A DNA stretch of 64,000 nucleotides. Origin: Patescibacteria group bacterium. Its GTDB lineage: Bacteria; Patescibacteriota; Patescibacteriia; SBBC01; CAIJZX01. This document shows positions 384 to 38,697 of this stretch, in pieces. The position numbers and the translations under genes were made by a program. Positions within the stretch are counted from its first letter, which is position 1. Every line of letters begins with the position of its first letter. Location: contig JBBTRH010000005.1 of NCBI GenBank assembly GCA_038065275.1, forward strand, positions 26,466 to 90,465, given 5' to 3'. A model generated the notes under the pieces. It was given only the letters and a program-made list of their open reading frames with translations, was not told the DNA's origin and searched no databases.

Positions 384-448
384 GCGCCAAGCATAGCAGA
401 AATATACATTTTGTCCAGGCATTTTCGTAGAGGTTTTCCCGCTATTCA

Positions 449-1021
449 CTACTGTGCCCGCCGTCGAAACATCCGCATCAACACCAAAACAACCAGCCCG
501 CCAACCAGGTTTTGGAACAAATCATGCGGCGTATCATACGGTCCTTGGACGCGGTGAGTATCGAACCAGAAATCACCGAGCCACTCGCTAATTTCATAGA
601 GCGATCCGACCAGCTGGCCGACCAGCACGCCCATCCAGGCCGCCCAACCCCAACCAGCTTGTAGTTTTCCGGTCGCCCGGTACGACAGAAAGAAGTCGAT
701 GAAGACGGCGCTAAGGGCCATCCCGCCGACGGCGTGCGTCAGGCGATCCCACCACCAGAATCCGGCGTACAGATGCTGAAAGTTGCCCAGCGCGTCAAGC
801 CAGACCGCGCCGGCCGCCAGGACGAAGGTCAGCCGGGCCAGACGGCTGCCCCGGCGGCGGAGCCAACGGTCGAAGAACAGCAGGGTAATCACGGACACCA
901 CGTTCGTCAAGGCTAAGGCGTTCTGCCGTCCAAACGTATCGTAACTAGTAAAGAGTTCGATCACCAACAACGCCGACTGAGCCACCAAAAAAATAATAAT
1001 GGGAAATCGTTCTTTCATACC
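449..1021 (-). CDS. integral membrane protein, unknown function
   Basis: ORF 449..1129 trimmed to MKERFPIIIF start abutting ATPase stop; multiple hydrophobic W-rich segments. Confidence 0.45.
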   Translation of the reverse strand, partial: GMKERFPIIIFLVAQSALLVIELFTSYDTFGRQNALALTNVVSVITLLFFDRWLRRRGSRLARLTFVLAAGAVWLDALGNFQHLYAGFWWWDRLTHAVGGMALSAVFIDFFLSYRATGKLQAGWGWAAWMGVLVGQLVGSLYEISEWLGDFWFDTHRVQGPYDTPHDLFQNLVGGLVVLVLMRMFRRRAQ

Positions 1022-3738
1022 GGCGTCGTCTTCAGGTACATCGGCCGCTCGGACCGGCGGCGAATCCACCATTTTCTCAGCTCTTCCACGCCAAATACCG
1101 GCGCCGCCGCCAAAATAATAATCAACCAATCACCAATCGTCAGCGGCGCCAGATGGAACACCGCGGCCAATACCGGCAGATAGATAATGGTGGCTTGCAG
1201 AATCAGCACCCCCACGATGGCCCCGGCCATACTCCGCGTCATGGTGGCGTGAATCAAGAGTGACCGGCGGGATGAGCGGGCGGTAATCGCATTGACAAGT
1301 TCGGCCGCCACCACCGACGTCAAGACCAGCGCGTACAGTCGCGGTTCTTCCATTCCGACCTTCAACCCGTACTGAAAAATAATTAAACTGGTCACGCCGA
1401 TGGCCGATCCGGTCAGGAGAATTCGATGCCACATTGAGGCCGGAATAATCTGGGCGCGCGGATCGTGGGGTTGTTCTTGCATCACCGACGGCGCCATCGG
1501 TTCGCGCGCCAAAGCTAAACCGAGGAACGGTCCGGTGATAGCGTTCAGCCAGATGATTTGCGTCGGCAGGAGCGGCAGCGGCAAACCGGCCATCAGGGCG
1601 GTCATGACCAGAATCAATTCGCCGAAGCTGGTGGCCAGCAAATAGTAGATCACTCGCCGAATATTGCGAAAAATACGACGGCCTTCGGCGATGGCCGCCA
1701 CGATGCTTAAAAAGTTGCCGTCAACCAGCAGTACATCCGCCGCTTCTTTGGCGGCCGCGCTTGAACCGCGGCCGACCGCAATACCGACATTAGCTTCAAG
1801 CAGGGCCGGCGCATCGTTGATGCCGTCGCCGGTCATGGCCACAATTTGACCCTCCTGTTTGAGAAGTTTGGCCAGCCGTAATTTATGTTCCGGCGTCAGG
1901 CGGGTGGCGACCGTGGTCAAAACCAATCGCCGGCGCAACGTCCGGTCGTCAAGCGCGTCGATGTCGCTCCCGTCAAGTAATCGGTCGGCCCGCTGATCCG
2001 GCAGTAGCCCCAACCGGGCGGCGACCGCTCGACCGGTATGACGATAATCGCCGGTCACCATAATCGTTTTAATCCCGGCTTGGTGCATCTCCTGAATGGC
2101 TTCCGCCGCTTCCGGACGAAGCGCGTCTTCCAATCCGAACAAGCCGACAAACGTGAACTGTCCGCCCAGCCGCTCGGCGGTCAATTCTTCAACTCGGTTC
2201 GGCCGATGGGTATACGCCACCGCCAATCCCCGGAGCGCTTGTCCGGCCCACCTTTCATAGACGGCCGTTACTTGACGCCGATCGTCGTCCGTCAGCGGGC
2301 TGGGTCCGGAGGCGGTCCAACGCTGACGACACAGTGACAGCACTTCTTGCGGCGCGCCCTTGATGACCACCAGCAATCCGGCGCCGTCGTGATGCCAGGT
2401 GATCATGTATTTCTTGTTGTAATCGAAGGGGAACTCGCCGACGCGGGGATGGGCGGCGGCGAGATCGACCCGGCTCCAGCCGATTTTTTCGGCCGCCACC
2501 AAGAGCGCCAGTTCAGTCGGGTCACCGATCGGCGTTCGCTGTCCGGCCACATCGCGGGAGAATCGGCTGTCATTATTCAACGCCCCGAGCCGGAAAGCCA
2601 GGTTGAGACCATCGTCGGCGCGACCGATAATTTTTTGGTCGTCAAGAAAAATGTCTCCCTCCGGCCGATAGCCCTTCCCCGACAGATGATACTCCCGCCC
2701 ATCAACCCAGGCTCGGGCCATCATCATCTCCCCGTAGGTCAACGTGCCGGTCTTGTCGGTCGCCACCACGGTCACCGCTCCGAGCGTTTCCACCGCGGCC
2801 AATTTTCGAACGATCGCCTGACGTTTCGACATCGCCCACATGCCGTAGGCCATGGCCATGGTGATGACTACCGGCAACCCCTCGGGGATAATTGACACGA
2901 TCATGCTGACCGCCAACAGAAACATTTGCTGGCCCGGCAAGTGACGGGCGATACCGAGCAAGAAAATAATCAGGCCGAGAAAAACCGTCACTACCGCCAG
3001 GCGCCGCGAAAAACCCGATATTTTCTTTTGAAACGGCGTCTGTTGATGGTCTATTTTTTGGAGATTCGCGACGATCGAACCGAAGCGGGTGTTGATGCCG
3101 ATCTCCGTGACCAGGAGCTTGCCCCGACCGCCGATCACTAATGTCCCCCGCCAACCCATGTTCCGGCGATCTTGGATAATCGTGCGGATCGGGAGCGGCG
3201 TCGCGATCTTTTCAACCGGCACGGATTCACCGGTCAAGCTGGATTCGTTGACCCGGACGTTGACGACGTCCACCCACCGGCCGTCGGCCGGTAAACCGTC
3301 GCCCGTTTCCACCACCACGATATCCCCGACCACTAAATCGCCGATCACCAATTCCTGTTCTTGGCCCTGGCGGATAACGTGGACGACTGGCGGCGCCAGT
3401 TGCAACAATTTGCTCATGGCCGTATTGGCCTGCACTTCCTGACGATACCCGATCGCCGCATTCAAGAGCACCACCGCGCTAATGACCAGCGCGTCCTGCC
3501 ATTCGCGCAATAGAAGCGAGATGACGCTGGCGATGAGCAAAATGTAAATCAGGGCGCTCTGGAACTGACTGCTGAACACCTGGAATCGCGTTCGTTCCCG
3601 GGGCGGCGGAAGAACATTGCGGCCGAACCGCTGGGCGGATGTCCGAACCTGATCGGGGGCTAATCCTTCCAGACTGCTCCCGGCCGATTGCAGGGCGGAT
3701 TCAACGCTGAGCGCCGACCAGAGAATCTTTTCGTCCAT
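1015..3738 (-). CDS. P-type cation-transporting ATPase (P2-type, Ca2+/Mg2+-like)
   Basis: 907 aa; TGES, DKTGTLT, TGDGINDAPAL motifs; 8-10 TM segments. Confidence 0.9.
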   Translation of the reverse strand: MDEKILWSALSVESALQSAGSSLEGLAPDQVRTSAQRFGRNVLPPPRERTRFQVFSSQFQSALIYILLIASVISLLLREWQDALVISAVVLLNAAIGYRQEVQANTAMSKLLQLAPPVVHVIRQGQEQELVIGDLVVGDIVVVETGDGLPADGRWVDVVNVRVNESSLTGESVPVEKIATPLPIRTIIQDRRNMGWRGTLVIGGRGKLLVTEIGINTRFGSIVANLQKIDHQQTPFQKKISGFSRRLAVVTVFLGLIIFLLGIARHLPGQQMFLLAVSMIVSIIPEGLPVVITMAMAYGMWAMSKRQAIVRKLAAVETLGAVTVVATDKTGTLTYGEMMMARAWVDGREYHLSGKGYRPEGDIFLDDQKIIGRADDGLNLAFRLGALNNDSRFSRDVAGQRTPIGDPTELALLVAAEKIGWSRVDLAAAHPRVGEFPFDYNKKYMITWHHDGAGLLVVIKGAPQEVLSLCRQRWTASGPSPLTDDDRRQVTAVYERWAGQALRGLAVAYTHRPNRVEELTAERLGGQFTFVGLFGLEDALRPEAAEAIQEMHQAGIKTIMVTGDYRHTGRAVAARLGLLPDQRADRLLDGSDIDALDDRTLRRRLVLTTVATRLTPEHKLRLAKLLKQEGQIVAMTGDGINDAPALLEANVGIAVGRGSSAAAKEAADVLLVDGNFLSIVAAIAEGRRIFRNIRRVIYYLLATSFGELILVMTALMAGLPLPLLPTQIIWLNAITGPFLGLALAREPMAPSVMQEQPHDPRAQIIPASMWHRILLTGSAIGVTSLIIFQYGLKVGMEEPRLYALVLTSVVAAELVNAITARSSRRSLLIHATMTRSMAGAIVGVLILQATIIYLPVLAAVFHLAPLTIGDWLIIILAAAPVFGVEELRKWWIRRRSERPMYLKTTPV

Positions 3739-3740
3739 AA

Positions 3741-4994
3741 TTATCGCCAGATGTTCATGATGGTCATCACGCCGGCGCCAGTCATGACCGCGAAGGTCAG
3801 CCAGCCCAGCCCGCGAACGATCGACGGGTGCCGGTGACCTCCGACCACATCGCGGCGATCAGCCAGGCGCAACATGTAGAACAGAATGACCGGCGCCAGT
3901 AAGCCGTTGAGCACCGCCGCCGCGATCAAAAACTGAATAGCCGCCACGCCGGTCAGGGTCGCTAACGCGCCAATGACGATCGCCGCGCTGATGGTAATGT
4001 AAAACGCTTTTGCTTGCTGAAATTTTTTTCCTAGGCCTTCCGGCCAATTAAACACTTCGGCCAACGCGTACGCCGCCGATCCGGCCAGGACCGGAATGGC
4101 CAGCAGTCCGGTCCCCAGGATCCCCAGCGCGAACAGGAAGAACGTTAGCGACCCGGCGATCGGCCGCAACGCTTCCGCCGCCTGTCGAGCGCTCTCGATG
4201 TTGGTGATCCCGGCCTGATGAAGCGTGCCGGCGGCCACGATGATAATGAAGAACATAATCACGTTCGAAAACAGCATGCCGACGACCGTATCCCAGCGCG
4301 CTTTTTTAAGTTGACCGCCAACGTCGGAATTAACCGCGGGCCGTGCCGCCTCCCGTAGTTTCTCCTCTTCCACCTCTTCCGACTCCTGCCAGTAAAATAA
4401 ATACGGCGAAATCGTCGTCCCGAGAATCGCGGTAATGAGCGGCCAAACCGCGGCGCCTTGATTCAGCGTCGGAATAACAGTCGCCCGGAAAATCGTCGCC
4501 CAATCTTGCCGGGTCGCAAACGCCGCGACGACGTAGGCCAACAGGGCCAGCGTCAACCATTTCAAAACATTGACGTACCTAACGTAGGACACGAAAATTT
4601 CCAGCAGGATGATCACCATCGCAAACAACACCAAGTACAGCCAGGCCGGCCCCGGCAACAGCAGTTGCGTGACCGCGCCCATGGCGCTCAAATCGGCGCC
4701 GATGTTGACGACGTTGACGACGAGCAGGCCGAGCGCCAAGACGAAGGCGGCGCGTTTCGAGACGTAGCGCTTGACCAGGCGGTTGAGCCCCTGTTTCGTC
4801 ACGATCCCGAGCCGGGCCGATATTTCCTGCGCCACCATCATCAACGGCGTGGTGAACAGCGACAGCCACAACAAGCCGTACCCGTACCGCGCGCCGGTTT
4901 GCGAGTAGGTCACGATCCCCGACGGGTCGTCGTCGGAGGCGCCGGTAATCACGCCCGGACCGATGTTCTTGATGAGTTTACGGAAGTGGAACAT
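3741..4994 (-). CDS. mntH: NRAMP-family divalent metal transporter
   Basis: 417 aa; N-terminal GPGVITGASDDDPSGI NRAMP signature; ~11 TM helices. Confidence 0.85.
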   Translation of the reverse strand: MFHFRKLIKNIGPGVITGASDDDPSGIVTYSQTGARYGYGLLWLSLFTTPLMMVAQEISARLGIVTKQGLNRLVKRYVSKRAAFVLALGLLVVNVVNIGADLSAMGAVTQLLLPGPAWLYLVLFAMVIILLEIFVSYVRYVNVLKWLTLALLAYVVAAFATRQDWATIFRATVIPTLNQGAAVWPLITAILGTTISPYLFYWQESEEVEEEKLREAARPAVNSDVGGQLKKARWDTVVGMLFSNVIMFFIIIVAAGTLHQAGITNIESARQAAEALRPIAGSLTFFLFALGILGTGLLAIPVLAGSAAYALAEVFNWPEGLGKKFQQAKAFYITISAAIVIGALATLTGVAAIQFLIAAAVLNGLLAPVILFYMLRLADRRDVVGGHRHPSIVRGLGWLTFAVMTGAGVMTIMNIWR

Positions 4995-5022
4995 GAGTCA
5001 AGTGAGTGTTTCTTTCGTGATG

Positions 5023-5050
5023 ATTATACCATAAAACGGCCGTTTCCGGC
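5023..5050 (-). promoter_or_regulatory. candidate extended -10 promoter (TGgTATAAT) for mntH-ATPase operon
   Basis: minus-strand TGGTATAAT 29 nt upstream of mntH ATG; weak -35. Confidence 0.35.
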
Positions 5051-5090
5051 TTTCCCATGTAGTGGACGCCGCGCATGCTACAATACCAGC

Positions 5091-5618
5091 GTGGATCGAG
5101 ACTTCCTTCGCCACCACAAAACCGCCGTTCTCGCCTTCACTATCGGCGTGGTGTTGGCCGTCCTGTACCTGACCCTGCCTGCGCTACACGATTTCTTGTC
5201 CCAAGTCAACCAGTTAGGCTATCCGGGCATGCTCCTGGCCGGCGTCATGTATGGCAGTGCGTTGACGTCATCCCTGGCCACCATTCTCTTCGTCGATACG
5301 CCGCCGCACCTCAATCCCATCATGATCGGACTGATCGGCGGTTTCGGAGCCGCGCTGTATGACCTCTCCGTATTCCTGCTTACCCGCCGCGAAGCCGAAC
5401 ACGGGTGGCTGGCCCGGGTCATCGCCCGTCTCCGCGAGCGGCGCCATGTCCCCAATTGGCTCACGGCTTTGATGGGCGTCGTCATTCTCGCCTCGCCGCT
5501 CCCCGACGAGCTGGCGGCCGGCTTGTTCGGCATCAATCGGAGCCGGAGCTTGCCGTTTTTCTTGCTCTCGTTTGCAAGCAACACGCTCGGTATCGTCCTG
5601 CTGAGCGTAGTGGTTTAA
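5091..5618 (+). CDS. small integral membrane protein, unknown function
   Basis: C-terminal ~175 codons of ORF 4458..5618; upstream part is antisense to mntH and R/Q-rich so start placed at first in-frame GTG after the divergent intergenic region; 4-5 TM helices. Confidence 0.4.
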   Translation: MDRDFLRHHKTAVLAFTIGVVLAVLYLTLPALHDFLSQVNQLGYPGMLLAGVMYGSALTSSLATILFVDTPPHLNPIMIGLIGGFGAALYDLSVFLLTRREAEHGWLARVIARLRERRHVPNWLTALMGVVILASPLPDELAAGLFGINRSRSLPFFLLSFASNTLGIVLLSVVV

Positions 5619-5952
5619 CGTAAACAATCCGAAATTTGAAGTCGGGGGGGTTTCCTCCACTTCTATACGTTTCAGTTTTTCTGCCATATTCCAGTAAAAG
5701 TGAAATGACTAGTAATGTCAGATTAACATAACGTAAAAGCCCTTCGCTTCCACCTACGCTAAAGCTTCGGTGGACGAGAAAGTCACCGACGCGCTATAGC
5801 GCTTTGGCGACGGCGCGTTACGGCTGGTCAAGCCCGAGGGGTTCGCCTGCCCCGGGCTTGTCCCGAGCTTGTCGAGGGGCTGCGGGGCGCGCCGCCTGTT
5901 GATGTTCTAACTAAGAGGGCCGGAGTAACGAACGCTACAAACTAAGGATTTT

Positions 5953-7221
5953 TTATTTCAATAAATCATTAAGCTCACAAGAAAGCAGTGCTGATTTATT
6001 GAGCACGATCTCCTCTTTCTGATTTAGATTATCCGCCGTTATTCTAATAACTTTGGTGACCATACTGTCGCCGAGCATAACTTTATTTGTTTTTTTAAAA
6101 TAGTTTTCCGTTTTATTGTAAAACAAGGTGATATACTGTTTGACCTTATTACTAAGCTGGTCTTTCGGGCTAGTGGCCACTAAGGGAATTATTTTCTCAT
6201 TAATTTTTGTCGGTAAATCACCATCTTTAAAAATTATCCAGTATTCGCTTAGTGCAAAACGGACTACCGCGCTATTTTGATCTTCAGTGTCATAGAAAAA
6301 ACCAAAATAGTATATACCACTAAGAATGTCTTTTTGAACAATAATTTCGCGTAATGTCGTTACCACATGTATTTCGTACTTATCAACCAGTTTGAAATAA
6401 CTTTCTCGCCAGTTCGCTAGCCAATTTTCAATATAGATCCGATCTACAAATAACGGGAGGAGGTCTTGTTTTAAATTTTCATCGTTTACTTCATTCATCT
6501 GGAATGTGAGTTTGTCAAAAAGCGCACGGGGATTTTTTACGTCAATGCCCTTGGCGACTAGATAATCAAAATCGGGCACAATCTTTTTGTTCATGTACCA
6601 TAAAAGATCGTAGATATCTCGCCCCTTCTCCTCATATACAGCCTTCCCCACTCCACGAGTCCCACGCAGAAAAATCGCCGCAATCTTGCTGGCCATCAGC
6701 GCCCCCATATTGTAGGTCACAATCACAAATGAAAGCTGGTCTCGGTTTATCGGTATACGTTCAGTCACCGTCTTAGAAGGCGCAAAGTGATTGAGGTCAA
6801 GTTTCACATGCACCTGTTTCGAAGGATGCCCCAGGCTTAATACTTCACCGACATTGAATTTAAGCAACAGTCCTCTCCCGGTAACAGTTTTTATGGTGAG
6901 AAAATTAGTATCAGCAGCGTAGGTGTTGGAAAAGTGCTCGGCCATATCATTCACTAATTCATCCAAATACTTCTCCGTTATCGCGTGCGCGACTTCAAAA
7001 TCCAAGTCAACTGACATACGGTTAAGATCGTGGCAGATGCGCAACGCCGAACCGCCGTACATAATCCACTTGCTGTATTCAGGATGGCGGTAAATATAAT
7101 TGAGCACGTAAAACTGTAACTCTTCTTTGAGCGCGTTGCGACGTGTCTCTACATCAATCCCACCATAAGCTATAATGTCATCGAGTTTCCTTTGTAATAT
7201 CGTTAGTATCTGTTCACTCAT
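5953..7221 (-). CDS. abiEii: AbiEii/AbiGii-family nucleotidyltransferase toxin (type IV TA, DUF1814)
   Basis: 422 aa, AT-rich; YGGSALRICHDLNRMSVDLDF matches the AbiEii NTase core; 8-nt overlap with upstream partner. Confidence 0.7.
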   Translation of the reverse strand: MSEQILTILQRKLDDIIAYGGIDVETRRNALKEELQFYVLNYIYRHPEYSKWIMYGGSALRICHDLNRMSVDLDFEVAHAITEKYLDELVNDMAEHFSNTYAADTNFLTIKTVTGRGLLLKFNVGEVLSLGHPSKQVHVKLDLNHFAPSKTVTERIPINRDQLSFVIVTYNMGALMASKIAAIFLRGTRGVGKAVYEEKGRDIYDLLWYMNKKIVPDFDYLVAKGIDVKNPRALFDKLTFQMNEVNDENLKQDLLPLFVDRIYIENWLANWRESYFKLVDKYEIHVVTTLREIIVQKDILSGIYYFGFFYDTEDQNSAVVRFALSEYWIIFKDGDLPTKINEKIIPLVATSPKDQLSNKVKQYITLFYNKTENYFKKTNKVMLGDSMVTKVIRITADNLNQKEEIVLNKSALLSCELNDLLK

Positions 7222-7831
7222 GTAAGTATTTCTTAATCATTGCATGAAACTTTTCCTGCTCGGACTTATCCATCTGATCAAAGTCAATTCGCAGGTTTTC
7301 AATCAGTGTCTCAATTTTTCCTAATGCGGGTCTGCGAAACTGGTTCGTTCTGAAATAGAGTAAGTCGAACAGTGCTTTTGATGGAGAAGCGACGAAACAA
7401 TCAAACTTCGCTTTCGCTAAAGAGAAATCTGTAAATAGTGATTTCTGGATGGACTGGTAGGCAAAATTTCCAACTCTTGTCTTATACTCCCTTGTAACTT
7501 TAGGCGTAACCGAGGTAACGGAGTGTATCGTCTCTGTGGTGAGATCATAATACTGAAGCGCCGCCCACGAGCTAACGTACGACGGCGTACGAATGACGTT
7601 TGCGAGATAGAATGAGTATGAAATGTCATTTTTGTTCTTGTCGTAAAAATCCGCAGCAACATACAGTCCATTCCTAAGCTGGACAATTTCATTGTGCTTC
7701 AAGCCGCGGCTGATGTAGGTGTTTATTGTCGCGTCGGTAAGCCCAAGCTGTTTACCAAGCTGATAAACGGTATTTTTGCCAAAATGGGGCAAGGGTTTTA
7801 GCTGTTCTATGAGGTTTTTTCGGCTTTTCAT
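7214..7831 (-). CDS. abiEi: AbiEi-family antitoxin/transcriptional regulator
   Basis: 205 aa; N-terminal winged-helix-like region; directly upstream of and overlapping abiEii. Confidence 0.6.
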   Translation of the reverse strand: MKSRKNLIEQLKPLPHFGKNTVYQLGKQLGLTDATINTYISRGLKHNEIVQLRNGLYVAADFYDKNKNDISYSFYLANVIRTPSYVSSWAALQYYDLTTETIHSVTSVTPKVTREYKTRVGNFAYQSIQKSLFTDFSLAKAKFDCFVASPSKALFDLLYFRTNQFRRPALGKIETLIENLRIDFDQMDKSEQEKFHAMIKKYLHE

Positions 7832-7929
7832 AAGTATGACAGTAGTGTATCATATATGAAAAGTGGTGTCAAATGGTACTTATTCAATGACCAAAAGCGG
7901 CCTCCATTCCCGCACGCCCTCTCCTTCCG

Positions 7930-7970
7930 GCGCCCCGCCGCCGCATTTTCCCGCCGCCCGAGGGGTTCGT
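7930..7970. repeat. IR-A left copy: 41-bp perfect inverted repeat (GC-rich junction element)
   Basis: GCGCCCCGCCGCCGCATTTTCCCGCCGCCCGAGGGGTTCGT; exact reverse complement at 11353-11393; followed by a short hairpin and GCGCCGC. Confidence 0.8.
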
Positions 7971-7998
7971 GCCCCGCTTTGCGGGGCGCGCCGCTAAA

Positions 7999-8277
7999 TT
8001 ATGGTAATAAATTACGCCTCATCCAGTCAGTCACATCTTTTGAAATATTAAAAGTCGCCCAATTACTATTTGGAACTTCGATAACCATTACTTTGTCAAC
8101 CGATTTAATTCTATCCCTAATGCCATCCCGAATTTGTGCAATATCTATAGGAGTTTTGATTATCCAAGTATTGGCACACGGTCTTGCCCATTGTGAGGCG
8201 GTTTTAAGGTACGCTATCAAATTCGGATAACTATTTTCCGTATAACTTAGCTGATAAGATATTAAGAATGATTTCAT
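7999..8277 (-). CDS. hypothetical 92-aa protein immediately downstream of the PIN-like gene
   Basis: AT-rich ORF, 3-nt gap to upstream stop; no recognisable motif. Confidence 0.4.
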   Translation of the reverse strand: MKSFLISYQLSYTENSYPNLIAYLKTASQWARPCANTWIIKTPIDIAQIRDGIRDRIKSVDKVMVIEVPNSNWATFNISKDVTDWMRRNLLP

Positions 8278-8280
8278 ATC

Positions 8281-9339
8281 CTATGTCACATTATTACCTA
8301 GTCCGCCGTCTTCTTTAGGTTCTGTACTCGATACGCTTCCAGAGCTTAAATCACCTTGATCTTGAATATCAGAAACAGTAATTGGGCTGTTGTTAGATCC
8401 AATCGAATCAGTGGAAGAGGCAACTAATCCCTCCTCAGATTTTGCCAATTCTTGGTCCGTTTGTGTTGACTCTTTTAGTTTTTTAACTTTTTCAAGTAAA
8501 TCCTTGTTAAATTTCACTTTAAAATGCTGACCAGCATACTTCATAAATTGATCTGATTGGTACATGTGAAAAGAAACATTGGCGCGCTCCTTTACTTCTT
8601 TTAACAATTCATGTCTTGCGCCAATAATCGTTGCACCATTTAATCCACTAACCTTCCACCACCAATCCTCTTTTTGTTCGTCAGTTACAAAAATAATAGG
8701 GGTTTTTGCTTCTTGTGCCTTATCAAGTATCTGCATCCAAATAATAAGGTCGCCGAATTTACTCGTTCCAGTCTTATCTTCCTTGTCCTTTCTTTTCCTA
8801 TCAGAATAACCTGGCGGTATTTCTTTTTCGTATCTAGCCTCCCCATCTTTATATATTTCATTCAGCCTTTTATTGTCAAATGGCTTTCCGACCCTATTTT
8901 TTAATATTCGATTCAGCTCGATCTCTACTTTATCTTTATTCAAAAAGTCACAATACTTATTTTTTGATAAAACCACTTCTTTTTGAATAGTTTTAAAATT
9001 TAGTGATATTTTTTTTAGAATCAATTTAGAATCAAAAAGTTTATCAATTTCCTGTTCTGTAGTATTTAAAAGGCTAATACTTTCGTGGTGAGCCTTTTCT
9101 TGGGAGTGAATTACATACAGTCTATCTCGATAATATTCCAAAGCCACCTGGTGAGGTATCCAAACCCTCCCTCTTTTTTGTAACTCTTTAAGAATGATTA
9201 TTAGCTTAGCCCTTGCTTGTTGTGGGATGCGATATAGACTTAAAAGTACATTTGTGTCAAAAACAAACGTTGCTTCATCCCAAAGCTTAATAAAACTTCT
9301 CTTTGATGGCTTATTATACTCCGGAAAAAGATCTCTCAT
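8281..9339 (-). CDS. PIN-like domain protein (DUF4935-like)
   Basis: N-terminal FVFDTNVLLSLY PIN motif, further acidic residues, DEQKEDWWWK block; low-complexity S/T/D-rich C-terminal tail. Confidence 0.55.
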   Translation of the reverse strand: MRDLFPEYNKPSKRSFIKLWDEATFVFDTNVLLSLYRIPQQARAKLIIILKELQKRGRVWIPHQVALEYYRDRLYVIHSQEKAHHESISLLNTTEQEIDKLFDSKLILKKISLNFKTIQKEVVLSKNKYCDFLNKDKVEIELNRILKNRVGKPFDNKRLNEIYKDGEARYEKEIPPGYSDRKRKDKEDKTGTSKFGDLIIWMQILDKAQEAKTPIIFVTDEQKEDWWWKVSGLNGATIIGARHELLKEVKERANVSFHMYQSDQFMKYAGQHFKVKFNKDLLEKVKKLKESTQTDQELAKSEEGLVASSTDSIGSNNSPITVSDIQDQGDLSSGSVSSTEPKEDGGLGNNVT

Positions 9340-9438
9340 GCTTGGACTATTTAACTTCAGATGGGTTATCTCTCATGGGCTTGTTGTGCCAATGTTATTA
9401 CAAATCACAGAATAAACTCACAAAAACATTACATGTGT

Positions 9439-10236
9439 CTAAAAAATAGTAGTGACTTTATTGTACAACATTGACAAACAATCCTGCTTCATACGGAATT
9501 TCGTCCCATGATTGTGTCCGGTGCGAGCATCAAAATCAACGAGTATTTTTCCCTCTTCAAGTGCTTTCAAAAACCCTTCAAAACTGAATTTCTGTAGCAT
9601 CATCACTTTTGTATAATGATAGTATTCTTTCTTTTTATTAACATAAACTTCGGCCTGGACGTAAAAGGTATTTAAAAGCTTTGTACCCGCTTTATGCTCT
9701 AAGTCATCGAATCCCCAGTACGGCTGTGGATTTAATTCGCCAAGCCCAACACGTTTTTTAACCAGTTCAAGCCATCCCTTGTGTCGTGCATCAACTCCAG
9801 ACGCTTTAAATGAAATTAAAATTTTACGCTTATTTCGGTCGATTACGACTTTGAAACCTCGATCACTACGCGATTGTCCATGGATTGTTTGCCTAAAACT
9901 CATTTCTCCTGCTGGATACTTTTTTCCGTCCTCTTGGTGAGCCCATCCATATTGTGGTAATAAAACCTGTGGGACAAAGCGAATCGCTCGTGGTGACGGT
10001 TCAATATGAAAAAGTGTCGTGAGTGAAGTAGAGTTAAGTCTTTGAGTTTTTAACTCCCACTCAGCGGCATTAGGGATTGGTAGGTTATTTTCCTTAATGC
10101 CCAGTAAATCTTCAAGTGTATTCCCAATGCCACCGGCGTTTCCTCGACGTGCATTTGGGACCCACCCCAATTCTGAAATCTCTTTTAGCCGCTCAACTAG
10201 TGCTTCTTTAGTATAAATGACTGGTTTCTTTGCCAT
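9439..10236 (-). CDS. type II restriction endonuclease, MvaI/BcnI-like
   Basis: ORF 9439..10323 trimmed to MAKKPVIYTKEAL; last gene of C-M-R operon; family assignment by recall, not search. Confidence 0.5.
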   Translation of the reverse strand: MAKKPVIYTKEALVERLKEISELGWVPNARRGNAGGIGNTLEDLLGIKENNLPIPNAAEWELKTQRLNSTSLTTLFHIEPSPRAIRFVPQVLLPQYGWAHQEDGKKYPAGEMSFRQTIHGQSRSDRGFKVVIDRNKRKILISFKASGVDARHKGWLELVKKRVGLGELNPQPYWGFDDLEHKAGTKLLNTFYVQAEVYVNKKKEYYHYTKVMMLQKFSFEGFLKALEEGKILVDFDARTGHNHGTKFRMKQDCLSMLYNKVTTIF

Positions 10237-10240
10237 ACAG

Positions 10241-10996
10241 TTATAAAAGTTTTGACTGGGATTGATGTTGCTTAATCCTTTTACGCGCCATTTCACAGTA
10301 ATCGGGAGAAATATCAATGCCAATATACTTGCGTTTATGGTTAATTGCGGAAATGGCCGTCGTCCCTGACCCCATAAATGGATCTAAAACTACTTTAGCG
10401 TCTGTTGCCGAAATTATTCGGTCAATTAACTTTACAGGAAACGCGGCAGGGTGTTTATTGTTCATTTCTTGGGTAAACTCCCACACATCTCCGAGAGCAT
10501 TTGCTTTATCGGCAAGCTTAAATTTTGGTTTAGCAATCAAATAAATTACTTCGTAAGTCGGTAAAAAGTAACCGGCGTTAAAATTCAACCCACCTTTTCT
10601 TTTCCAAATGATTATCTGGCGCACGGGAAAACCAGCCACAATATCTTGTCGATCTTGCAAAAGTCCCGCCTGAACACGCCATTTATGATTGTAAAAAATT
10701 GCGCCATTCTCAGGAATAATTCTTAGCATTTCGGTAAGGGAGTCTCTTTGCCACTTCACATACTTTTCGTGCGGCATACTGTCATCATGATGAGAGTACC
10801 CATTTTGAAGTGCCGCGTTTGCCCATTTTCCACCCCGACCATCTTTCATTCCGTTTCCAGTTGAATTTTTTAGGTTATACGGAGGCGAAGTAACGACTAA
10901 ATCTACCGACCCGTCGGGTATTTGTTTCATTACATCAACGGCATTTCCGCAAATATTTTTGTTGATAAAATCTAATGGATAGTTGAGCTTTTTCAT
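10241..10996 (-). CDS. DNA methyltransferase, beta-class amino-MTase (N4-cytosine or N6-adenine)
   Basis: DLVVTSPPYN (motif IV) N-terminal and FDPFMGSGTT (motif I) C-terminal = beta-class order. Confidence 0.8.
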   Translation of the reverse strand: MKKLNYPLDFINKNICGNAVDVMKQIPDGSVDLVVTSPPYNLKNSTGNGMKDGRGGKWANAALQNGYSHHDDSMPHEKYVKWQRDSLTEMLRIIPENGAIFYNHKWRVQAGLLQDRQDIVAGFPVRQIIIWKRKGGLNFNAGYFLPTYEVIYLIAKPKFKLADKANALGDVWEFTQEMNNKHPAAFPVKLIDRIISATDAKVVLDPFMGSGTTAISAINHKRKYIGIDISPDYCEMARKRIKQHQSQSKLL

Positions 10997-10997
10997 A

Positions 10998-11273
10998 TTA
11001 CTTTAGAAGATCATCACTGGAAATTTCTAACGCTTGAGCAAGTCTTGCCACTGTCGAAAGAGTCACGTTTCTTTTACCATTCTCAATGCCACTAATGTAC
11101 GCTCTGTCAGCGCCAATTTTCGAAGCAATGTCTCCTTGGGACATTCCTTTCTTCGTCCGTATCTTTTTGAGATTATCGCCTAAACGGGAATTGATCGTAT
11201 CGGTATTCACTTGACCAATATACTCCCTTGTTGCACTATAGAGCAATAGTGTACTATAGTACACAAAGCACAT
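10998..11273 (-). CDS. controller (C) protein, XRE-family HTH regulator of the R-M system
   Basis: MSQGDIASKIGADRAYISGIENGKRNVTLSTVARLAQAL HTH; first gene of C-M-R operon; true start probably internal (GTG ~11210). Confidence 0.65.
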   Translation of the reverse strand: MCFVYYSTLLLYSATREYIGQVNTDTINSRLGDNLKKIRTKKGMSQGDIASKIGADRAYISGIENGKRNVTLSTVARLAQALEISSDDLLK

Positions 11274-11352
11274 TGGGGAGCCGAAAGCGCGCGCACGGGA
11301 GGGCGGGGCAAGCGCTTATCTCTACAGGCGGCGCATCCCGTAGCAACGGGAT

Positions 11353-11393
11353 ACGAACCCCTCGGGCGGCGGGAAAATGCGGCGGCGGGGCGC
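11353..11393. repeat. IR-A right copy (reverse complement of 7930-7970)
   Basis: 41/41 identity in inverted orientation. Confidence 0.8.
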
Positions 11394-11486
11394 GGGCGGG
11401 CGGAATTCCCCCTTAGACCCCCTTCCGCCCGCCCGAATCGCCTAAAACTGCCCTTCAAAATAGGTTCGAGCGGCGTTCAGCAATTT

Positions 11487-11580
11487 CCACCAAATGAAAC
11501 TTCCGCGAAAGTCTACGGTCAAATTCCAGGGTTTAGCCAATATCCACCGCACGCTTTTATCCACCAGGCGGCGGTTCGTA
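11487..11580. repeat. IR-B left copy: 94-bp inverted repeat
   Basis: reverse complement of 13901-13994 with a single mismatch; creates artefactual ORF 11442..11672 (-) that mimics the recombinase C-terminus. Confidence 0.85.
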
Positions 11581-11736
11581 GCCCCAGAAGGGGCTAGGTA
11601 TGAAAATGGTCGTGTGATATTACCATTTTCGTACCTTCCAATTTTTTCCGGTTCCGCTCCGAAGCGGAACACGAAGCAAGTTTTTCCGAATCCCGCGCTT
11701 CACTTCCAGTAGTAAGAATGGTTAACTAATAGCACT

Positions 11737-12534
11737 ATGAGCATAAGAATTATCATGCGAGACAATAGCGGTAATAAGTTCTGGATTATTACCCCAAACA
11801 TTAGTATGTATAGCTTTGCGTCCAAATCAAAAAACGTGACTTTCTTGGAAATCTTTTATCGCTTTGCACAGGTTCTAGTTAAACCGCGGAAAGGGCTAAC
11901 AAAGGGTGAAGAGGAGAAGATACTTTTGTCGAGAAAACGGGTCTTGGTTGAGTTAAACAATAAGGTAATGGCGTTAAAATACCTTGCCAACGAATGTAAA
12001 AAGCAGGGCGAGAAATTAATTGCGAGAAAAGATAGCAAAAAGAGAATATACGACTATAAACCATATCAAGTTTTTCTGGCTCTTTGTGAAAGTTATCTGG
12101 ACACTGTACACAGTACCTACGATTGCATCGCTGATCTGGACGGGTTTTTAGGCAAGAAATATGCCCGTGCTATCAATAAAGAACAATGGTTTAAGATCGA
12201 TATGGATTTAAGAAACGTTTTTCATCACAACCAAAGCCCTCTAGTTACTATTGAGAAAGGGAAGGTAGATTTCACCATAGAAAAGCTACCAAGGAGCCCA
12301 AGATTTTTGACTCCGGCAATGAAAAACCCACACGGACGATACGAATTCTCTTTAGACCCAAAGGATTTGGGCGAAGACATTCTTACATTTCTTGAAAAAT
12401 GGGCAAAGCAATATTTGGATTTGATTGATGGCAACGAGAGCATTGACGCAATTGCGGGTTATAAAAAAGATGGTGGTGTAAGAACCAAGAAAGTCACCTT
12501 AAAAGAACTTATGAAACGAGTCGTTGCTACCTAA
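11737..12534 (+). CDS. hypothetical protein (265 aa) upstream of serine recombinase
   Basis: AT-rich ORF 6 nt upstream of recombinase start; no motif recognised; start may be an internal Met. Confidence 0.4.
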   Translation: MSIRIIMRDNSGNKFWIITPNISMYSFASKSKNVTFLEIFYRFAQVLVKPRKGLTKGEEEKILLSRKRVLVELNNKVMALKYLANECKKQGEKLIARKDSKKRIYDYKPYQVFLALCESYLDTVHSTYDCIADLDGFLGKKYARAINKEQWFKIDMDLRNVFHHNQSPLVTIEKGKVDFTIEKLPRSPRFLTPAMKNPHGRYEFSLDPKDLGEDILTFLEKWAKQYLDLIDGNESIDAIAGYKKDGGVRTKKVTLKELMKRVVAT

Positions 12535-12539
12535 AAACT

Positions 12540-14030
12540 ATGCGGTATTTTCTTTACGCTCGAAAATCAACCGAGGATGAAGAACATCAGATCATGTCCA
12601 TTGAGGCACAGCTCTTTGAGTTGTCCGAATATGCCAAGCGAGAAAAGATAACCATTGCCGAAAAGTTTATTGAAAGTAAAAGCGCGAAAAGTCCCGGTCG
12701 GGAAATTTTCGGCCAGATGATTGTCAAAATACAGGAAAGTAAAGAACCAATCGGCATTCTCGCTTGGCATCCTGATCGCTTGGCCCGAAATAGTATTGAT
12801 GGTGGTCAAATTATCTACCTCGTCGACGGCAAGAAAATCGCGGCCTTGCGTTTCCCGACATTCTGGTTTGAACCGACACCGCAAGGGCTATTCATGCTCC
12901 AAGTCGCGTTTGGCCAATCGAAATACTATTCGGACAACTTAAGCGAGAACGTGAAGCGCGGGATTCGTCAAAAACTCAGACGTGGTGAGTCCCCAAATTA
13001 TGCGGCAATCGGGTACGTCAATAATTTTAAAACCCGGACAATTGAACCCGATCCGTTCAAAGGGCGTGTCATCGCTAAAGCATTTGAAGAATATGCGAAA
13101 GGAATGCACACCCTCGAAAGTCTAGGCAAGCGTCTGAGTTTTTGGGGTATAGTCAGTCGGACCGGAAAGCCGCTCCCAAAAGCAACGTTGAGCCGAATGT
13201 TGACCAATCCGGTTCATTGCGGATTGATTCGGCATAATGGCGAAACATATCCGGGCGGTTTTGCCGCTAACGTCTCGATGGAGTTATTCGAAAAAGTCCA
13301 GAAAGTCTATAAGCAAAATCAAAAAGGTCATCATTTTCGTAAGCGTCATCATTTTGCTTTAACTGGACTATTGAAGTGCGGAGAATGTGGCGCGGCAATA
13401 ACCGCCCAAAATACCAAAGGTCATGGCGGTTGGTATGTGTATTATCGCTGTACCAAACGTCTTGGTCCTTGTAAGCAAGGATACATTCAACAAGAGCGGC
13501 TTTCCGATCTGATCCGCGCAAAGGTTCGAGAAGTTGCAATAAGCGAAGACTGGGCGAAGAAAATGTTGGATAAGGTAACGATGTGGGAAAATGAGATCGC
13601 CCAGTCTTCGCAGTCTTCCGCCCAAAATCTCAAAACAAGGATGAAGGAAACAGAATTACAGCTTGACCGCATAGTGAATGCTTTCCTTGATGGCTCTATT
13701 GAAAAGGCTGTTTATTTGGAAAAGAAAGATGCATTGATTAAAACTCAAACTGGCCTTGAACAGAAAAAGGCGGATTTTGGGCGGAAGACCCTTTATTGGA
13801 TCGAACCTTTGCGCCAGTGGATATTAGACGCTCAAAAGGCCGAAAAACTTGCTTCGTCGAACGATTTACCTGAATTGAAATCGTTCGCGGAAAAAATTGG
13901 AACGAACCGCCGCCTGGTGGATAAAAGCGTGCGGTGGATATTGGCTAAACCCTGGAATTTGACCGTAAACTTTCGCGGAAGTTTCATTTGGTGGGCCCCC
14001 CGGGACTCGAACCCGGAACTCTCAGCTTAA
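12540..14030 (+). CDS. large serine recombinase (resolvase/invertase N-domain + recombinase domain + zinc-ribbon)
   Basis: YARKSTEDE...SIEAQ catalytic Ser motif near N-terminus; 496 aa; Cys cluster CGECG...C..C; 3' end runs through IR-B and into the tRNA-Lys gene on the opposite strand. Confidence 0.8.
   Translation: MRYFLYARKSTEDEEHQIMSIEAQLFELSEYAKREKITIAEKFIESKSAKSPGREIFGQMIVKIQESKEPIGILAWHPDRLARNSIDGGQIIYLVDGKKIAALRFPTFWFEPTPQGLFMLQVAFGQSKYYSDNLSENVKRGIRQKLRRGESPNYAAIGYVNNFKTRTIEPDPFKGRVIAKAFEEYAKGMHTLESLGKRLSFWGIVSRTGKPLPKATLSRMLTNPVHCGLIRHNGETYPGGFAANVSMELFEKVQKVYKQNQKGHHFRKRHHFALTGLLKCGECGAAITAQNTKGHGGWYVYYRCTKRLGPCKQGYIQQERLSDLIRAKVREVAISEDWAKKMLDKVTMWENEIAQSSQSSAQNLKTRMKETELQLDRIVNAFLDGSIEKAVYLEKKDALIKTQTGLEQKKADFGRKTLYWIEPLRQWILDAQKAEKLASSNDLPELKSFAEKIGTNRRLVDKSVRWILAKPWNLTVNFRGSFIWWAPRDSNPELSA
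13901..13994. repeat. IR-B right copy (includes CCA end and 3' flank of tRNA-Lys)
   Basis: 93/94 identity to reverse complement of 11487-11580. Confidence 0.85.
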
Positions 14031-14063
14031 AAGGCTGATACTCTACCATTGAGTTAGGGACCC
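13992..14063 (-). tRNA. tRNA-Lys (anticodon UUU), CCA encoded at 13989-13991
   Basis: cloverleaf on minus strand: acceptor GGGUCCC/GGGGCCC, D-arm, anticodon loop CUUUUAA, T-arm CCGGGUUCGAGUCCCGG. Confidence 0.8.
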
Positions 14064-14308
14064 ATGTTGTAAACACTGCTTGCTTTAGAAAGGACGAGAT
14101 GTGTTTCACGTTGAGCCCCGACGTCCCGCTTACGGCGGGAGTCGGGGTCCCGAATCCCGCTTAGCGGGACTTCGGGATTAGGGACCCAAAACTGCGCTGA
14201 TGCTAGCATATTCAGCGTTATGGAGCAAGCGTCGCCGGTCCCCGATTCCCTTGACGCTCAAGCGACTGGGGCTTATGCTTCATCTGCAAACACTAACATC
14301 AGATCAAT

Positions 14309-15238
14309 ATGAACATCCCGCCAGCCGCAACCCCGCCGCAGAATCCCGTCCGTCCATCGATCGGTAAGGCTTCTCTCAAAGCGCTTGGTTTTGGTCTCCT
14401 GCTCGCCATTCCGATGACGTACGTCTTCGCGTATGGCGCCTTCTCGTTCATCTCGTACTTCCGGTTGAGCTACAACTGGGGCCTAGCCGGGATGTTCATT
14501 CCCTTCATCATCCTCTTCTATGGTTTCGCCGCCAACGCCATCATCATGGGCCTCACCACCTTCATCACCCTCGAACGGTCGCGCCGACCCTACCTCCACG
14601 CCGTCCTCATCGGCTTGATCGTCAACCTCCTGTTCATCATCGGCGGCTGGGGCTACAACCTCTATGCGTATCAAGGCCGGTTGACCGAGTTAAAGGCCCA
14701 ACGGAACAATGACAGTTACGTCACGGCTAAGGGTATTGCTGATTGCGCTAAGCTGACTGATGTCCAGTACTGGCGGGTGTGCATCAATAACAAGGTTGCC
14801 ACCGCCGCCGACAAAGCCGCCTGTGACACCCAAGCGATAAAATACGCCGCTCAATCCGGCGGAGCGACGAGCGAGTGCGCGCAAGAGCTGGCGATCAGTT
14901 CCGGATCGACTGCCCTCTGCGCCGATGTGCCGCTCAACGGCAACGCCTACGCCAATCAACGCGATTGCCTGTCCAAAACGATTCAGAAATCTTGGGAGAA
15001 GAACGACCGGAAAACGCCGCTGGCGATTGTCGAAGGATGCGCCGCCATCACCGATCCCCAGGAGAAGCAGTTCTGCTACGTCGTCTCGCTCCGTCAACTT
15101 ACAAAAGGCGATCCGGCCGCGACTGTTGCTTGCCAGCGCCTCGATCCGCACTTGTGGTTCGGCCCAATCAGCACCGCTGACAACGACCTGACGAATATCA
15201 AGAATGTCTGCGGTCTGACTATTACCCCGACTTCGTAG
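14309..15238 (+). CDS. membrane-anchored cysteine-rich protein, unknown function
   Basis: N-terminal ~3 TM helices then Cys-rich soluble domain. Confidence 0.45.
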   Translation: MNIPPAATPPQNPVRPSIGKASLKALGFGLLLAIPMTYVFAYGAFSFISYFRLSYNWGLAGMFIPFIILFYGFAANAIIMGLTTFITLERSRRPYLHAVLIGLIVNLLFIIGGWGYNLYAYQGRLTELKAQRNNDSYVTAKGIADCAKLTDVQYWRVCINNKVATAADKAACDTQAIKYAAQSGGATSECAQELAISSGSTALCADVPLNGNAYANQRDCLSKTIQKSWEKNDRKTPLAIVEGCAAITDPQEKQFCYVVSLRQLTKGDPAATVACQRLDPHLWFGPISTADNDLTNIKNVCGLTITPTS

Positions 15239-17644: not shown

Positions 17645-17657
17645 CCTCCCCCTCGTT

Positions 17658-17681
17658 CCCCCTCCTTAATTAAGGAGGGGG
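17658..17681. repeat. anti-SD/SD hairpin CCCCCTCCTT-AATT-AAGGAGGGGG
   Basis: perfect 10-bp stem, immediately after dnaB stop; no U-tract. Confidence 0.6.
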
Positions 17682-38633: not shown

Positions 38634-38697
38634 AAAAAGTATACCACAACCGCGTAGCCGCGGGCTGGAAAGCCCGCGGCTCTACTTTTCTTAAGCT

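Follow-up and report, generated by a model that had tools for sequence, protein, structure and literature searches.

The island lies at positions 5640-14063 of a 64,000-nt stretch of DNA from a Patescibacteria group bacterium (the window), where mean GC falls to 0.421, compared to 0.58 at 1-5639 and 0.569 at 14064-64000. An earlier note on this DNA had described the fall in GC; the drop itself was borne out, although the flanks measure 0.57-0.58 and not the approximately 65% given there. Codon usage, which the note had put forward as a check, is not uniform either, with GC3 values of 0.29-0.49 in island genes versus 0.71-0.81 in host genes. The accessory and defense genes that it had called, namely AbiE, PIN, restriction-modification (R-M), a 265-aa open reading frame (ORF), and a large serine recombinase (LSR), were confirmed, with family and domain matches for all but the 265-aa ORF.

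At the left edge, a border zone of intermediate GC (5640-5820, no strand assigned) has no recognizable attL but contains a hairpin (5747-5775) that resembles an S-arm hairpin of a related locus, L034. Genes for the AbiEii nucleotidyltransferase toxin (5953-7221; PF08843, 1.6e-20) and the AbiEi antitoxin/regulator (7214-7831; PADLOC AbiEi, 1.3e-36) follow on the minus strand, adjacent to one another as in AbiE type IV toxin-antitoxin/abortive infection systems. Also on the minus strand are a 92-aa ORF with no family match (7999-8277), a PIN-like protein (8281-9339; PIN_8, PF18476, 6.5e-52; also PIN_12), and an operon with the makeup of a type II R-M system with a C protein: an MvaI/BcnI-family type II restriction endonuclease (9439-10236, with its start set as in the gene call of 265 aa on Logan contig L086, which is identical), an N4/N6 DNA methyltransferase (10241-10996), both assigned by family match, and a small Xre-type helix-turn-helix (HTH) protein scoring as a control protein of R-M systems (10998-11273). 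On the plus strand lie orf265 (11737-12534; 265 aa, no family match) and the LSR gene (12540-14030; Resolvase, Recombinase, and Zn-ribbon domains). The island adjoins the 3' end of an intact tRNA-Lys(UUU) gene on the minus strand (13989-14063; Rfam, 70.1 bits), as the earlier note had stated. Integrase-bearing, compositionally deviant DNA thus abuts an intact tRNA 3' end, and these observations support the view that the AT-rich block is a horizontally acquired, modular defense and accessory island at tRNA-Lys, with the LSR as its integrase.

The LSR combines an N-terminal resolvase catalytic domain with a serine nucleophile (PF00239, 2.1e-19) with recombinase and zinc-ribbon domains (PF07508 and PF13408), and the Y-A-R-K-S and D-R-L-A-R motifs are nearly invariant or invariant in 28 homologues. 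A structure model of the homologue P0031 contains a coiled-coil insertion formed by long paired helices (338-385 and 391-413), and the closest solved structure is that of the A118 integrase (CTD, 4KIS). Homologues number more than 7,600 at E<1e-10, with identities of 60-71% among the best 120 of these, and 581 of 599 pattern matches in species-representative genomes, mostly of Patescibacteria, encode a relative. The small cargo-carrying elements represented here form a very widespread family, apparently one not described before. In about two-thirds of 84 loci, a tRNA gene on the opposite strand overlaps the LSR stop codon; the tRNAs concerned are Pro, Gln, Lys, Ala, Trp, Phe, Ser, His, Glu, Asp, Arg, and Ile, and the homologue C-termini read as antisense tRNA (W-S-G-x-x-D-L/S-N). 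The same holds in the window, where the stop codon (14030) falls within the 3' half of the tRNA-Lys gene and the final 12 codons read tRNA-Lys in antisense.

A 93-nt, 99% inverted repeat (11487-11579/13902-13994), missed by the earlier note, brackets orf265 and the LSR. Its left arm (11487-11579, plus strand) is an antisense copy of the LSR 3' end, and the first 6 nt of this arm (CCACCA) match the last 6 nt of tRNA-Lys, which we call the core. Its right arm (13902-13994, plus strand) is part of the sequence coding for the LSR C-terminus and extends 6 nt into tRNA-Lys, to a junction (J3) that comparative anatomy assigns as attR. Between the left arm and orf265 is a conserved leader (11580-11736, plus strand) with patches complementary to the LSR 3' region. 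The leader is 94% identical to that of a related locus, L003, which carries the element on a contig that stops within the arm. In the window, orf265 is an insertion between the leader and the LSR start codon; the ORF was not found in L003 or in the other LSR loci fetched. Between the window and L003, nucleotide identity is 89% for the LSR and 94% for the arms and leader together, whereas the host genes for DnaB and RNase T are 75% and 69% identical and the hosts differ in GC (0.57 in the window, 0.47 in L003). Being far more similar than the host genes, the element has, on this comparison of sequences, been transferred between hosts.

To the left of the inverted arm lies a conserved noncoding stretch, the right S arm (11287-11486), composed of Block 1 (11287-11317), Block 2 (11327-11357; GGCGGCGC-hairpin-ACGAA), the H hairpin (11394-11433), and the S motif (AAATAGGTTCGAGCGGCGTTCAGCAATTT; 11455-11486), all on the plus strand. 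Blocks homologous to this arm occur in the arms of nine relatives (L025, L032, L033, L034, L038, L047, L055, L062, and L066), in which the Block 2 homologues hold a fixed position between the HTH gene and the recombination site, in hosts unrelated to that of the window and with GC of approximately 0.34-0.51 where measured. Compensatory changes were found in 7/7 pairs of the Block 2 hairpin, with 100% of cells paired, in a set of hairpin sequences chosen in part by a hairpin filter. The comparison identifies the GC-rich blocks of the window as Block 2 (GGCGGCGC, covarying hairpin, ACGAA) of LSR-element S arms. Block C (11318-11396) has Block 2 as its core. Block A (5821-5895, plus strand), downstream of the AbiE operon, is a diverged S-arm fragment carrying the reverse complement of Block 2, with a hairpin approximately 29 nt larger. 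Block B (7927-7994, plus strand) is a truncated copy of a left, inverted S arm; it matches 11328-11393 in reverse complement, has no outer H hairpin, S motif, or core, and makes up with block C a 50-nt inverted repeat (94%) that encloses the PIN and R-M genes. The sequence GCCCGAGGGGTTCG occurs exactly three times in the 64 kb, all inside the island (versus 1.0 expected; 8 of 100 shuffles reach three), and the third copy, in block C, is inverted relative to the other two, an orientation that the earlier note did not record. The 39478-39545 palindrome, which had been proposed as a fourth related block, has only a 16- to 23-nt hairpin apex in common with block A and was ruled out as a copy of the element.

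Across relatives, these parts follow a fixed layout. Its left half runs from host DNA downstream of the tRNA through the core and an inverted S arm to the cargo operon, and its right half from the S arm through the core, the inverted copy of the LSR 3' end, and the LSR to the core again and the tRNA. The inverted copy is found upstream of the gene in 74 of 84 loci (median 145 nt, 99% identity), mostly ends 6 nt inside the tRNA, and lies beside a conserved S motif, after which come the final 4-7 nt of the tRNA at that locus. Where the upstream sequence extends far enough (15 loci), the cargo, 1.3-9.2 kb long, is enclosed on its far side by another S arm in inverted orientation (140-435 nt, 86-100% identity), and an attL-type second junction is recognizable. 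Beyond this arm the DNA is unique, with a hairpin and T-run in 8 of the 15, as would be expected of the tRNA's own terminator. The elements measure approximately 3-11 kb, contain no phage genes, and carry cargo that includes R-M systems, SMODS/SLATT, AAA_15, SocA, and LexA-like proteins, with the cargo opposite in strand to the LSR in every element with one-directional cargo. An Xre-HTH gene heads the cargo operon and is the last cargo gene before the right S arm in layout order; homologues (31-56% identity) at this position in at least 11 related elements mark it as a backbone gene of the family. As it is kept in members with other cargo, the HTH protein may be an element regulator instead of, or besides, an R-M controller. 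No recombination directionality factor (RDF) was recognized in the family elements, for which the HTH protein is only a candidate.

The S motif and the tRNA T-loop differ in their distance from the repeat boundary: GGTTCG of S lies 24 nt away and the T-loop 19 nt, an offset of 5 in 27/27 loci. In serine integrases, the zinc-ribbon motif occupies positions 16-24 in attP versus 11-19 in attB (PMC3783163), and the offset observed here matches this known shift, with the outer half-site motif 5 bp nearer the center on the tRNA (attB-type) side. Across the family, the P half-site shows little conservation. S also reads as an alternative C-terminal tail of the LSR. Its reverse complement is free of stops in the LSR frame over 14-17 codons in 23/25 distinct loci, while the other two frames are closed in 24/25 and 21/25, and the encoded peptide (W-S-Q-[LI]-L-N-E-A-R-T-[YF]-F-E) is conserved through synonymous-type changes. 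AlphaFold models this peptide as a helix (pLDDT ~84) after a disordered linker.

We consider it probable that the island is an integrated, partly decayed small element driven by its LSR, together with what is left of a related one that preceded it at this tRNA-Lys. [quoted passage not shown] The enzyme would see, on the tRNA side, the T-loop (GGTTCRA) 19 nt from the crossover, such that the T-loop and acceptor of tRNA-Lys form an attB-type half-site; on the element side, it would see GGTTCG of S at 24 nt, an attP-type half-site. Integration would replace the native S-encoded C-terminal tail with a peptide from antisense tRNA and leave the tRNA intact, because the element supplies the identical last 4-7 nt. 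The family layout further implies that an inverted, intact copy of attP, as excision would regenerate, is carried beside the recombinase gene; in the window, the left arm and S would form this internal attP-like site (J2). The conservation of this copy in the family goes beyond what the element model accounts for.

The window copy is a decayed composite in which the right module is complete (HTH-methyltransferase-endonuclease-PIN, right S arm, internal site, LSR, and attR) and the left S arm has been cut down to block B. AbiE and block A resemble what a related element that arrived earlier at this tRNA would leave behind, comparable to the tandem locus L087. In this respect, the repeated insertions envisaged in the earlier note fit loosely as successive events, not as insertions into a host GC-rich element. 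The window contains a single S motif, and neither a second S motif nor an inverted S with core (attL) was found in it. Precise excision is thus probably no longer possible, and the left boundary and the history of AbiE and block A are conjecture.

Other readings of this anatomy differ in what they make of the repeats. The earlier note took the GC-rich blocks for copies of one small element, read here as a REP/MITE-like host element, into which modules insert site specifically, and was right that three related blocks separate AT-rich modules. The blocks measure GC 0.71-0.82 in a host of GC 0.57; the recurrence of the block A hairpin apex at 39.5 kb also fits. Their role as a host insertion target did not hold up, as the 64-kb window contains 0 copies beyond the island, the homologous blocks keep a fixed place in LSR-element arms in the other hosts noted above, the arms of relatives are inverted pairs around cargo that end at the recombination core, and a metagenome motif scan gave nothing but chance matches, all of them in coding DNA and away from any LSR. 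We regard this reading as very unlikely. That the long inverted repeats are assembly artifacts has a negligible chance of being correct: many contigs do end in or beside them, but they recur in 74/84 loci, which derive from a wide range of projects and assemblers and include contigs as long as 0.64 and 6.2 Mb, a complete conserved gene separates the arms, and the same arms are present in the window, L003, and Logan contigs.

Inverted repeats bracketing both segments could also mean phase variation, with expression switched when the LSR inverts the segment that holds its own gene, the R-M and PIN segment, or both. Assembly breaks are common at the repeats, a tail encoded by S, as expected of a flipped or excised state, is present in approximately 23 of 120 homologues, and a tRNA lies upstream of the LSR in five contigs. 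However, a single orientation prevails in nearly all contigs spanning both arms (but not in L065, where S flanks the LSR on either side), one-directional cargo is always on the strand opposite the LSR, and inversion would alter neither a junction sequence nor any obvious promoter relationship. The deviant contigs (L087, L088, L211, L020, L045, and others) begin or terminate within a repeat arm, so the assembler could not resolve their orientation, and we judge phase variation unlikely. Equally improbable, in our view, is an integron-like platform, in which the LSR and the internal site would be a stable dock for exchanged, S-ended cargo cassettes. Highly variable cargo beside a conserved recombinase, site, and HTH backbone would suit such a dock, as would the tandem modules with repeated S arms in L087 and the window, and in L036 the upstream LSR-end copy is joined to a second tRNA, suggesting that the upstream site can recombine. 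Yet the arms that bound the cargo are inverted, not direct, a single module is usual, and the arm plus the LSR end is the product that one excision would regenerate; the pairing that a dock would require, of attP-like with attL-like sites, is not known for serine integrases (PMC3783163).

The small LSR-driven element that we favor shares with phage-type serine integrases (A118/LI, phiC31, Bxb1, and SPbeta SprA) the resolvase/recombinase/zinc-ribbon/coiled-coil architecture and two kinds of half-site with one motif shifted by 5 bp between attP and attB. Its LSR family differs in being at most 28% identical to any sequenced phage or plasmid LSR, in targeting the T-loop and acceptor end of many different tRNAs, in an ORF that crosses attP such that integration would swap approximately 15 C-terminal codons, and in small elements free of phage genes and of a recognized RDF; canonical serine-integrase elements, unlike these, keep no inverted, intact attP copy inside. 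Tyrosine-integrase islands (Islander-type, tycheposons, and phage defense elements) likewise integrate at tRNA 3' ends and restore the tRNA, and are similar in small size, defense, toxin-antitoxin, and R-M cargo, and tandem accretion; here, by contrast, the recombinase is a serine enzyme (as also in a minority of tycheposons), the ends share 4-7 nt only, with no direct repeat, and ends and interior form two pairs of long inverted repeats.

SSV1-type archaeal integrases are tyrosine enzymes with attP inside the gene. As there, the attachment site lies in the recombinase ORF and integration would alter the gene, but here the C-terminal tail alone would be exchanged, leaving a complete enzyme, and that enzyme is a serine recombinase. 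Integrons (IntI, attI, and attC) also place a recombinase beside a site, with variable cargo near the promoter and modules that end in structured GC-rich repeats; here there is no tyrosine integrase or attC consensus, the arms form inverted pairs, and there is usually one cargo module. An integron/attC array was rejected for the window, where the sole recombinase is a serine enzyme, the blocks lack GTTRRRY on inspection of the sequence, and block C is inverted. Hin/Gin invertible segments and the yeast 2-micron FLP system have inverted repeats with the recombinase between or beside them, and here too long inverted repeats bracket a recombinase gene and a second unique segment; in contrast, a single orientation is seen in nearly all contigs spanning both arms, which gives no sign of flipping. 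Recombination between two attP sites is not known for serine integrases.

A more tentative reading, possible though rather doubtful, is that of a self-rewiring serine-integrase element, defined by an ORF that crosses attP and a second, inverted attP beside the gene. Because the recombinase ORF crosses attP, integration would exchange the conserved S-encoded C-terminal helix for a tRNA-antisense peptide. If this is correct, the enzyme would differ between the free and integrated states, and the direction of recombination could be controlled without a directionality factor. The second attP could, in addition, recombine with further tRNA genes, leading to cassette exchange or rearrangement, as in L036.

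We found that the fall in GC content described in the earlier note across 5640-14063 is real (0.421), but that the flanks, put there at about 65%, stand at 0.58 upstream and 0.569 downstream. GC3 in the nine island genes is 0.29-0.49, versus 0.71-0.81 in a host-type set (P-type ATPase, Nramp, a 309-aa protein, RNase T, DnaB, SecY and EF-G). Every gene called earlier in the island was confirmed by Pfam and PADLOC, and an Rfam scan of 5300-14500 at E<=1 returned nothing beyond tRNA-Lys(UUU) (13989-14063, minus strand, 70.1 bits). The stop codon of the large serine recombinase (LSR; 12540-14030, plus strand) falls within this tRNA gene. Immediately 5' of the tRNA, between it and the 309-aa gene, lie two nested GC-rich hairpins (14100-14190). 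Taken alone, this locus of a Patescibacteria MAG is a decayed tRNA-linked defence island and a modest result.

The three GC-rich blocks between its modules (A, 5821-5895; B, 7927-7994; C, 11318-11396) are indeed present and mutually related, GCCCGAGGGGTTCG occurring three times in the window and only in the island. The block C copy is inverted relative to A and B, and B (7927-7976) together with C (11347-11396) makes up an inverted repeat of 50 nt (94%) that encloses the PIN and R-M genes. A stronger feature, overlooked earlier, is a 93-nt inverted repeat (99%) that encloses LSR and a 265-aa ORF (orf265; 11737-12534, plus strand); its right arm lies in the C-terminal codons of LSR and terminates 6 nt into the tRNA. 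The GC-rich spacers, previously taken for host insertion targets, are here reassigned to the arms of an element.

At E<1e-10 the homologues of LSR number more than 7,600. Identity to it is 60-71% among the best 120 listed, apart from one at 93%, and the named members of these 120 come from MAGs of several phyla, many on contigs of 2-4 kb. Scanning one genome per species gave 581 confirmed LSR loci, of which 80 were fetched; the hosts are mostly Patescibacteria, but also Omnitrophota, Bacteroidales, Gammaproteobacteria, Planctomycetia and further groups. In about two-thirds of 84 loci a convergent tRNA gene, from one of twelve tRNA species, covers the LSR stop codon, and homologue C-termini of the form W-S-G-x-x-D-L/S-N are the antisense translation of CCA, acceptor stem and T-loop. 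An inverted copy of the LSR 3' end lies upstream of the gene in 74 of the 84 loci (median length 145 nt, median identity 99%). One locus (L057, 6543-11586) carries a pair of LSR genes (39% and 54% identity to the query) about 3.5 kb apart at neighbouring tRNA-Ser and tRNA-Ala genes.

Just outside the upstream arm of this repeat, nearly all loci carry a conserved motif, S (TCAAAATAGGTTCGAGCTTCGTTCAGTAATTG). After this S come the final 4-7 nt (the core) of whichever tRNA stands at the opposite end, for example CGACCA for Pro, CAGCCA for Gln and CCACCA for Lys and Ala. In the 15 loci with enough sequence, a second, inverted S is found 1.3-9.2 kb further out, within an inverted repeat of 140-435 nt whose two copies we call the S arms. 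Beyond its core the DNA is unique, and in 8 of the 15 loci it is a hairpin with a T-run, which would match expectation for the tRNA's original terminator. The LSR-adjacent S and the inverted far-end S therefore define a family layout that reads host, core, S' arm, cargo, S arm, core, inverted LSR 3'-end copy, LSR, core and tRNA. Literature searches found no description of such an architecture. We named the junction of host and S' (J1) as the putative attL and that of the LSR end and tRNA (J3) as the putative attR; J2, joining S to the LSR-end copy, would be an inverted intact copy of the attP expected from J1 x J3 excision.

Counted from the repeat boundary, GGTTCG is 24 nt away in S and the T-loop GGTTCRA is 19 nt away, an offset of 5 in all 27 scorable loci. 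The same spacing rule has been described for serine integrases, in which the zinc-ribbon motif occupies positions 16-24 in attP and 11-19 in attB (PMC3783163); the integrase of that study, A118, is also the closest solved structure to LSR. We infer that the repeat boundary is the probable crossover point and the T-loop the probable specificity determinant, which would account for so many different tRNAs being targeted. Five SPAdes contigs (L006, L007, L017, L027 and L043) end about 50 nt past the upstream arm, just within the S arm (the first ~55 nt of each contig), an overrun of about one k-mer length if k = 55. This suggests that those genomes have the S-arm repeat as well and that it regularly breaks assemblies.

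Aligning the S arms of twelve elements, we identified four conserved pieces: Block 1 (TTGCGCGCGCACGGGAGGGCGGGGCAAGCGC), Block 2 (GGCGGCGC, a hairpin and ACGAA), a long H hairpin (GGGCGGGC...GCCCGCCC) and the S motif. On the opposite strand, Block 2 is the CCCGAGGGGTTCG-hairpin-GCGCCGCC core of the earlier note. Across eleven distinct Block 2 sequences, with the caveat that three came from a hairpin-filtered search, compensatory changes are seen at each of the seven stem pairs and no cell is unpaired, while pairing falls to 17-44% when the partner column is slid. Taken singly, blocks A, B and C have folding energies unexceptional for such GC-rich DNA (z -0.5 to -1.4); the predicted Block 2 hairpin is supported by covariation, not by energy. 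The window arm (11287-11486) matches those of nine other elements piecewise, and in one locus (L005) the arms are GC-rich although host and cargo are AT-rich. A metagenome scan with GCCCGAGGGGTTCG-N8-38-CGCCGCC gave 120 matches, none near an LSR or S motif; all were chance occurrences in high-GC coding DNA, in codons for P-E-G-F.

In the right arm the hairpins lie between the start codon of an HTH gene and the recombination site, and in the left arm downstream of the cargo operon. Homologues of the window's HTH gene (10998-11273; scored as an R-M control protein) are found at the equivalent position in at least 11 elements regardless of cargo, with 31-56% identity. Among 15 elements, the cargo comprises several type II R-M systems, SMODS/SLATT, AAA_15, SocA, LexA-like proteins and a few metabolic genes. 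By comparison of loci, orf265 lies outside the element backbone. We considered it as an LSR partner or RDF and rejected it: it is absent from L003, the corresponding locus of a related species, and from all other fetched LSR loci, and its 27 homologues occur in unrelated contexts, alone beside tRNA-Ala or next to Abi_alpha/HicAB/Fic. At L212 (8689-9780; also L213 and L214) a homologue is the sole gene of an AT-rich islet some 240 nt downstream of tRNA-Ala(GGC).

The S motif also has the properties of coding sequence. In 23 of 25 distinct loci its reverse complement stays open in the LSR frame over 14-17 codons, with the remaining two frames closed in 24 and 21 of the 25. The encoded peptide, W-S-Q-[LI]-L-N-E-A-R-T-[YF]-F-E, is preserved despite codon changes (e.g., TTA CTG, TTA TTA, ATA TTG, ATT CTA), and entropy in this frame peaks at third positions. 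About 23 of the best 120 homologues listed carry the tail, which an AlphaFold model of one of them renders as a helix (pLDDT ~84) after a disordered linker. Because S is open and conserved in the LSR frame, the native LSR gene would end in S, and integration would swap this tail for a tRNA-encoded peptide.

Nearly all contigs spanning both arms show the same orientation, and cargo genes lie on the strand opposite LSR in every element with one-directional cargo. A real exception is L036 (941-2936), in which convergent tRNA-Pro genes (GGG and CGG) flank LSR and the two arms differ over the outer 65 nt. This arrangement shows that the upstream LSR-end copy can be joined to a tRNA too, and looks like either recombination of the internal site with a second tRNA or cassette exchange. 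An attempt to recover an excised or flipped state from S-tailed LSR proteins failed; each of the three contigs inspected has an end inside a repeat arm and so does not fix the orientation. On an 88-kb Bacteroidales contig (L065, 2436-4881), LSR is flanked by the S motif on both sides and by no tRNA, as expected of a non-integrated configuration.

We also compared the window copy with L003, whose host (GC 0.47) has a DnaB 88% identical in protein and 75% in nucleotide sequence. The same element is present there at tRNA-Lys, with nucleotide identities of 89% for LSR and 94% for arms plus leader; the element is far more recent than the divergence of the two hosts. J3, J2, LSR, the right S arm and the HTH-MTase-REase-PIN cargo, including a 92-aa ORF (orf92; 7999-8277, minus strand), are intact in the window. 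The left arm is cut to block B, equivalent to 11328-11393, and lacks the H hairpin, S and core; nhmmer at maximum sensitivity (E up to 200) detected no degenerate second S motif in the island. AbiE lies left of block B, and block A, at the far end of AbiE and oriented like B, is a more diverged arm fragment. L087 shows this pattern too: distal to its current element sits an older module that has an S arm of its own. We infer that serial integration at one tRNA may have been followed by a deletion that took out the junction between two modules. Precise excision from the window locus is unlikely because there is no attL. Exact-protein look-ups with the window LSR and Nramp gave no match, and those with the PIN protein and the 309-aa protein matched nothing but short Logan contigs broken in repeats, which yielded neither an empty site nor a left boundary.

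Elsewhere in the window, the stretch 58599-60727 contains a second AT-rich insert (GC 0.41-0.47) downstream of tRNA-Pro(GGG) (59043-59116); at the borders of the insert the tRNA 3' end is directly repeated over 31 nt (59086-59116 and 60697-60727, 90%). Its 406-aa ORF (59314-60534) has no Pfam match, and repeated segments similar to tRNA 5' halves lie upstream (58599-58664/58770-58835 and 58876-58923/59039-59086). The 95-nt GC-rich palindrome at 39475-39569 (DNA fold -35.7 kcal/mol, z -7.2), which lies 5' of a histidine-phosphatase gene, had been counted as a fourth relative of the blocks; it has only the apex TCGAGCTTGTCGAGGG in common with block A. Recurring palindromes of type CCCCCTCCTTAATTAAGGAGGGG (17648-17681, 38697-38719 and 50797-50830) are possibly host terminators.

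The LSR family matters more than the window copy. IMG/VR holds two partial N-terminal matches only, and sequenced phage and plasmid collections hold no LSR above 28% identity. In Patescibacteria and other uncultivated phyla, few small mobile elements appear to be as common as those of this family, which move R-M, TA and other defence genes between these phyla. The family provides hundreds of natural attP/attB pairs in which the attB half-site is the universal tRNA T-loop, a resource for studying site recognition by serine integrases and perhaps for engineering integrases. It also raises two testable questions: what purpose the internal inverted attP copy serves, and whether the C-terminal tail swap at integration acts as a direction control.
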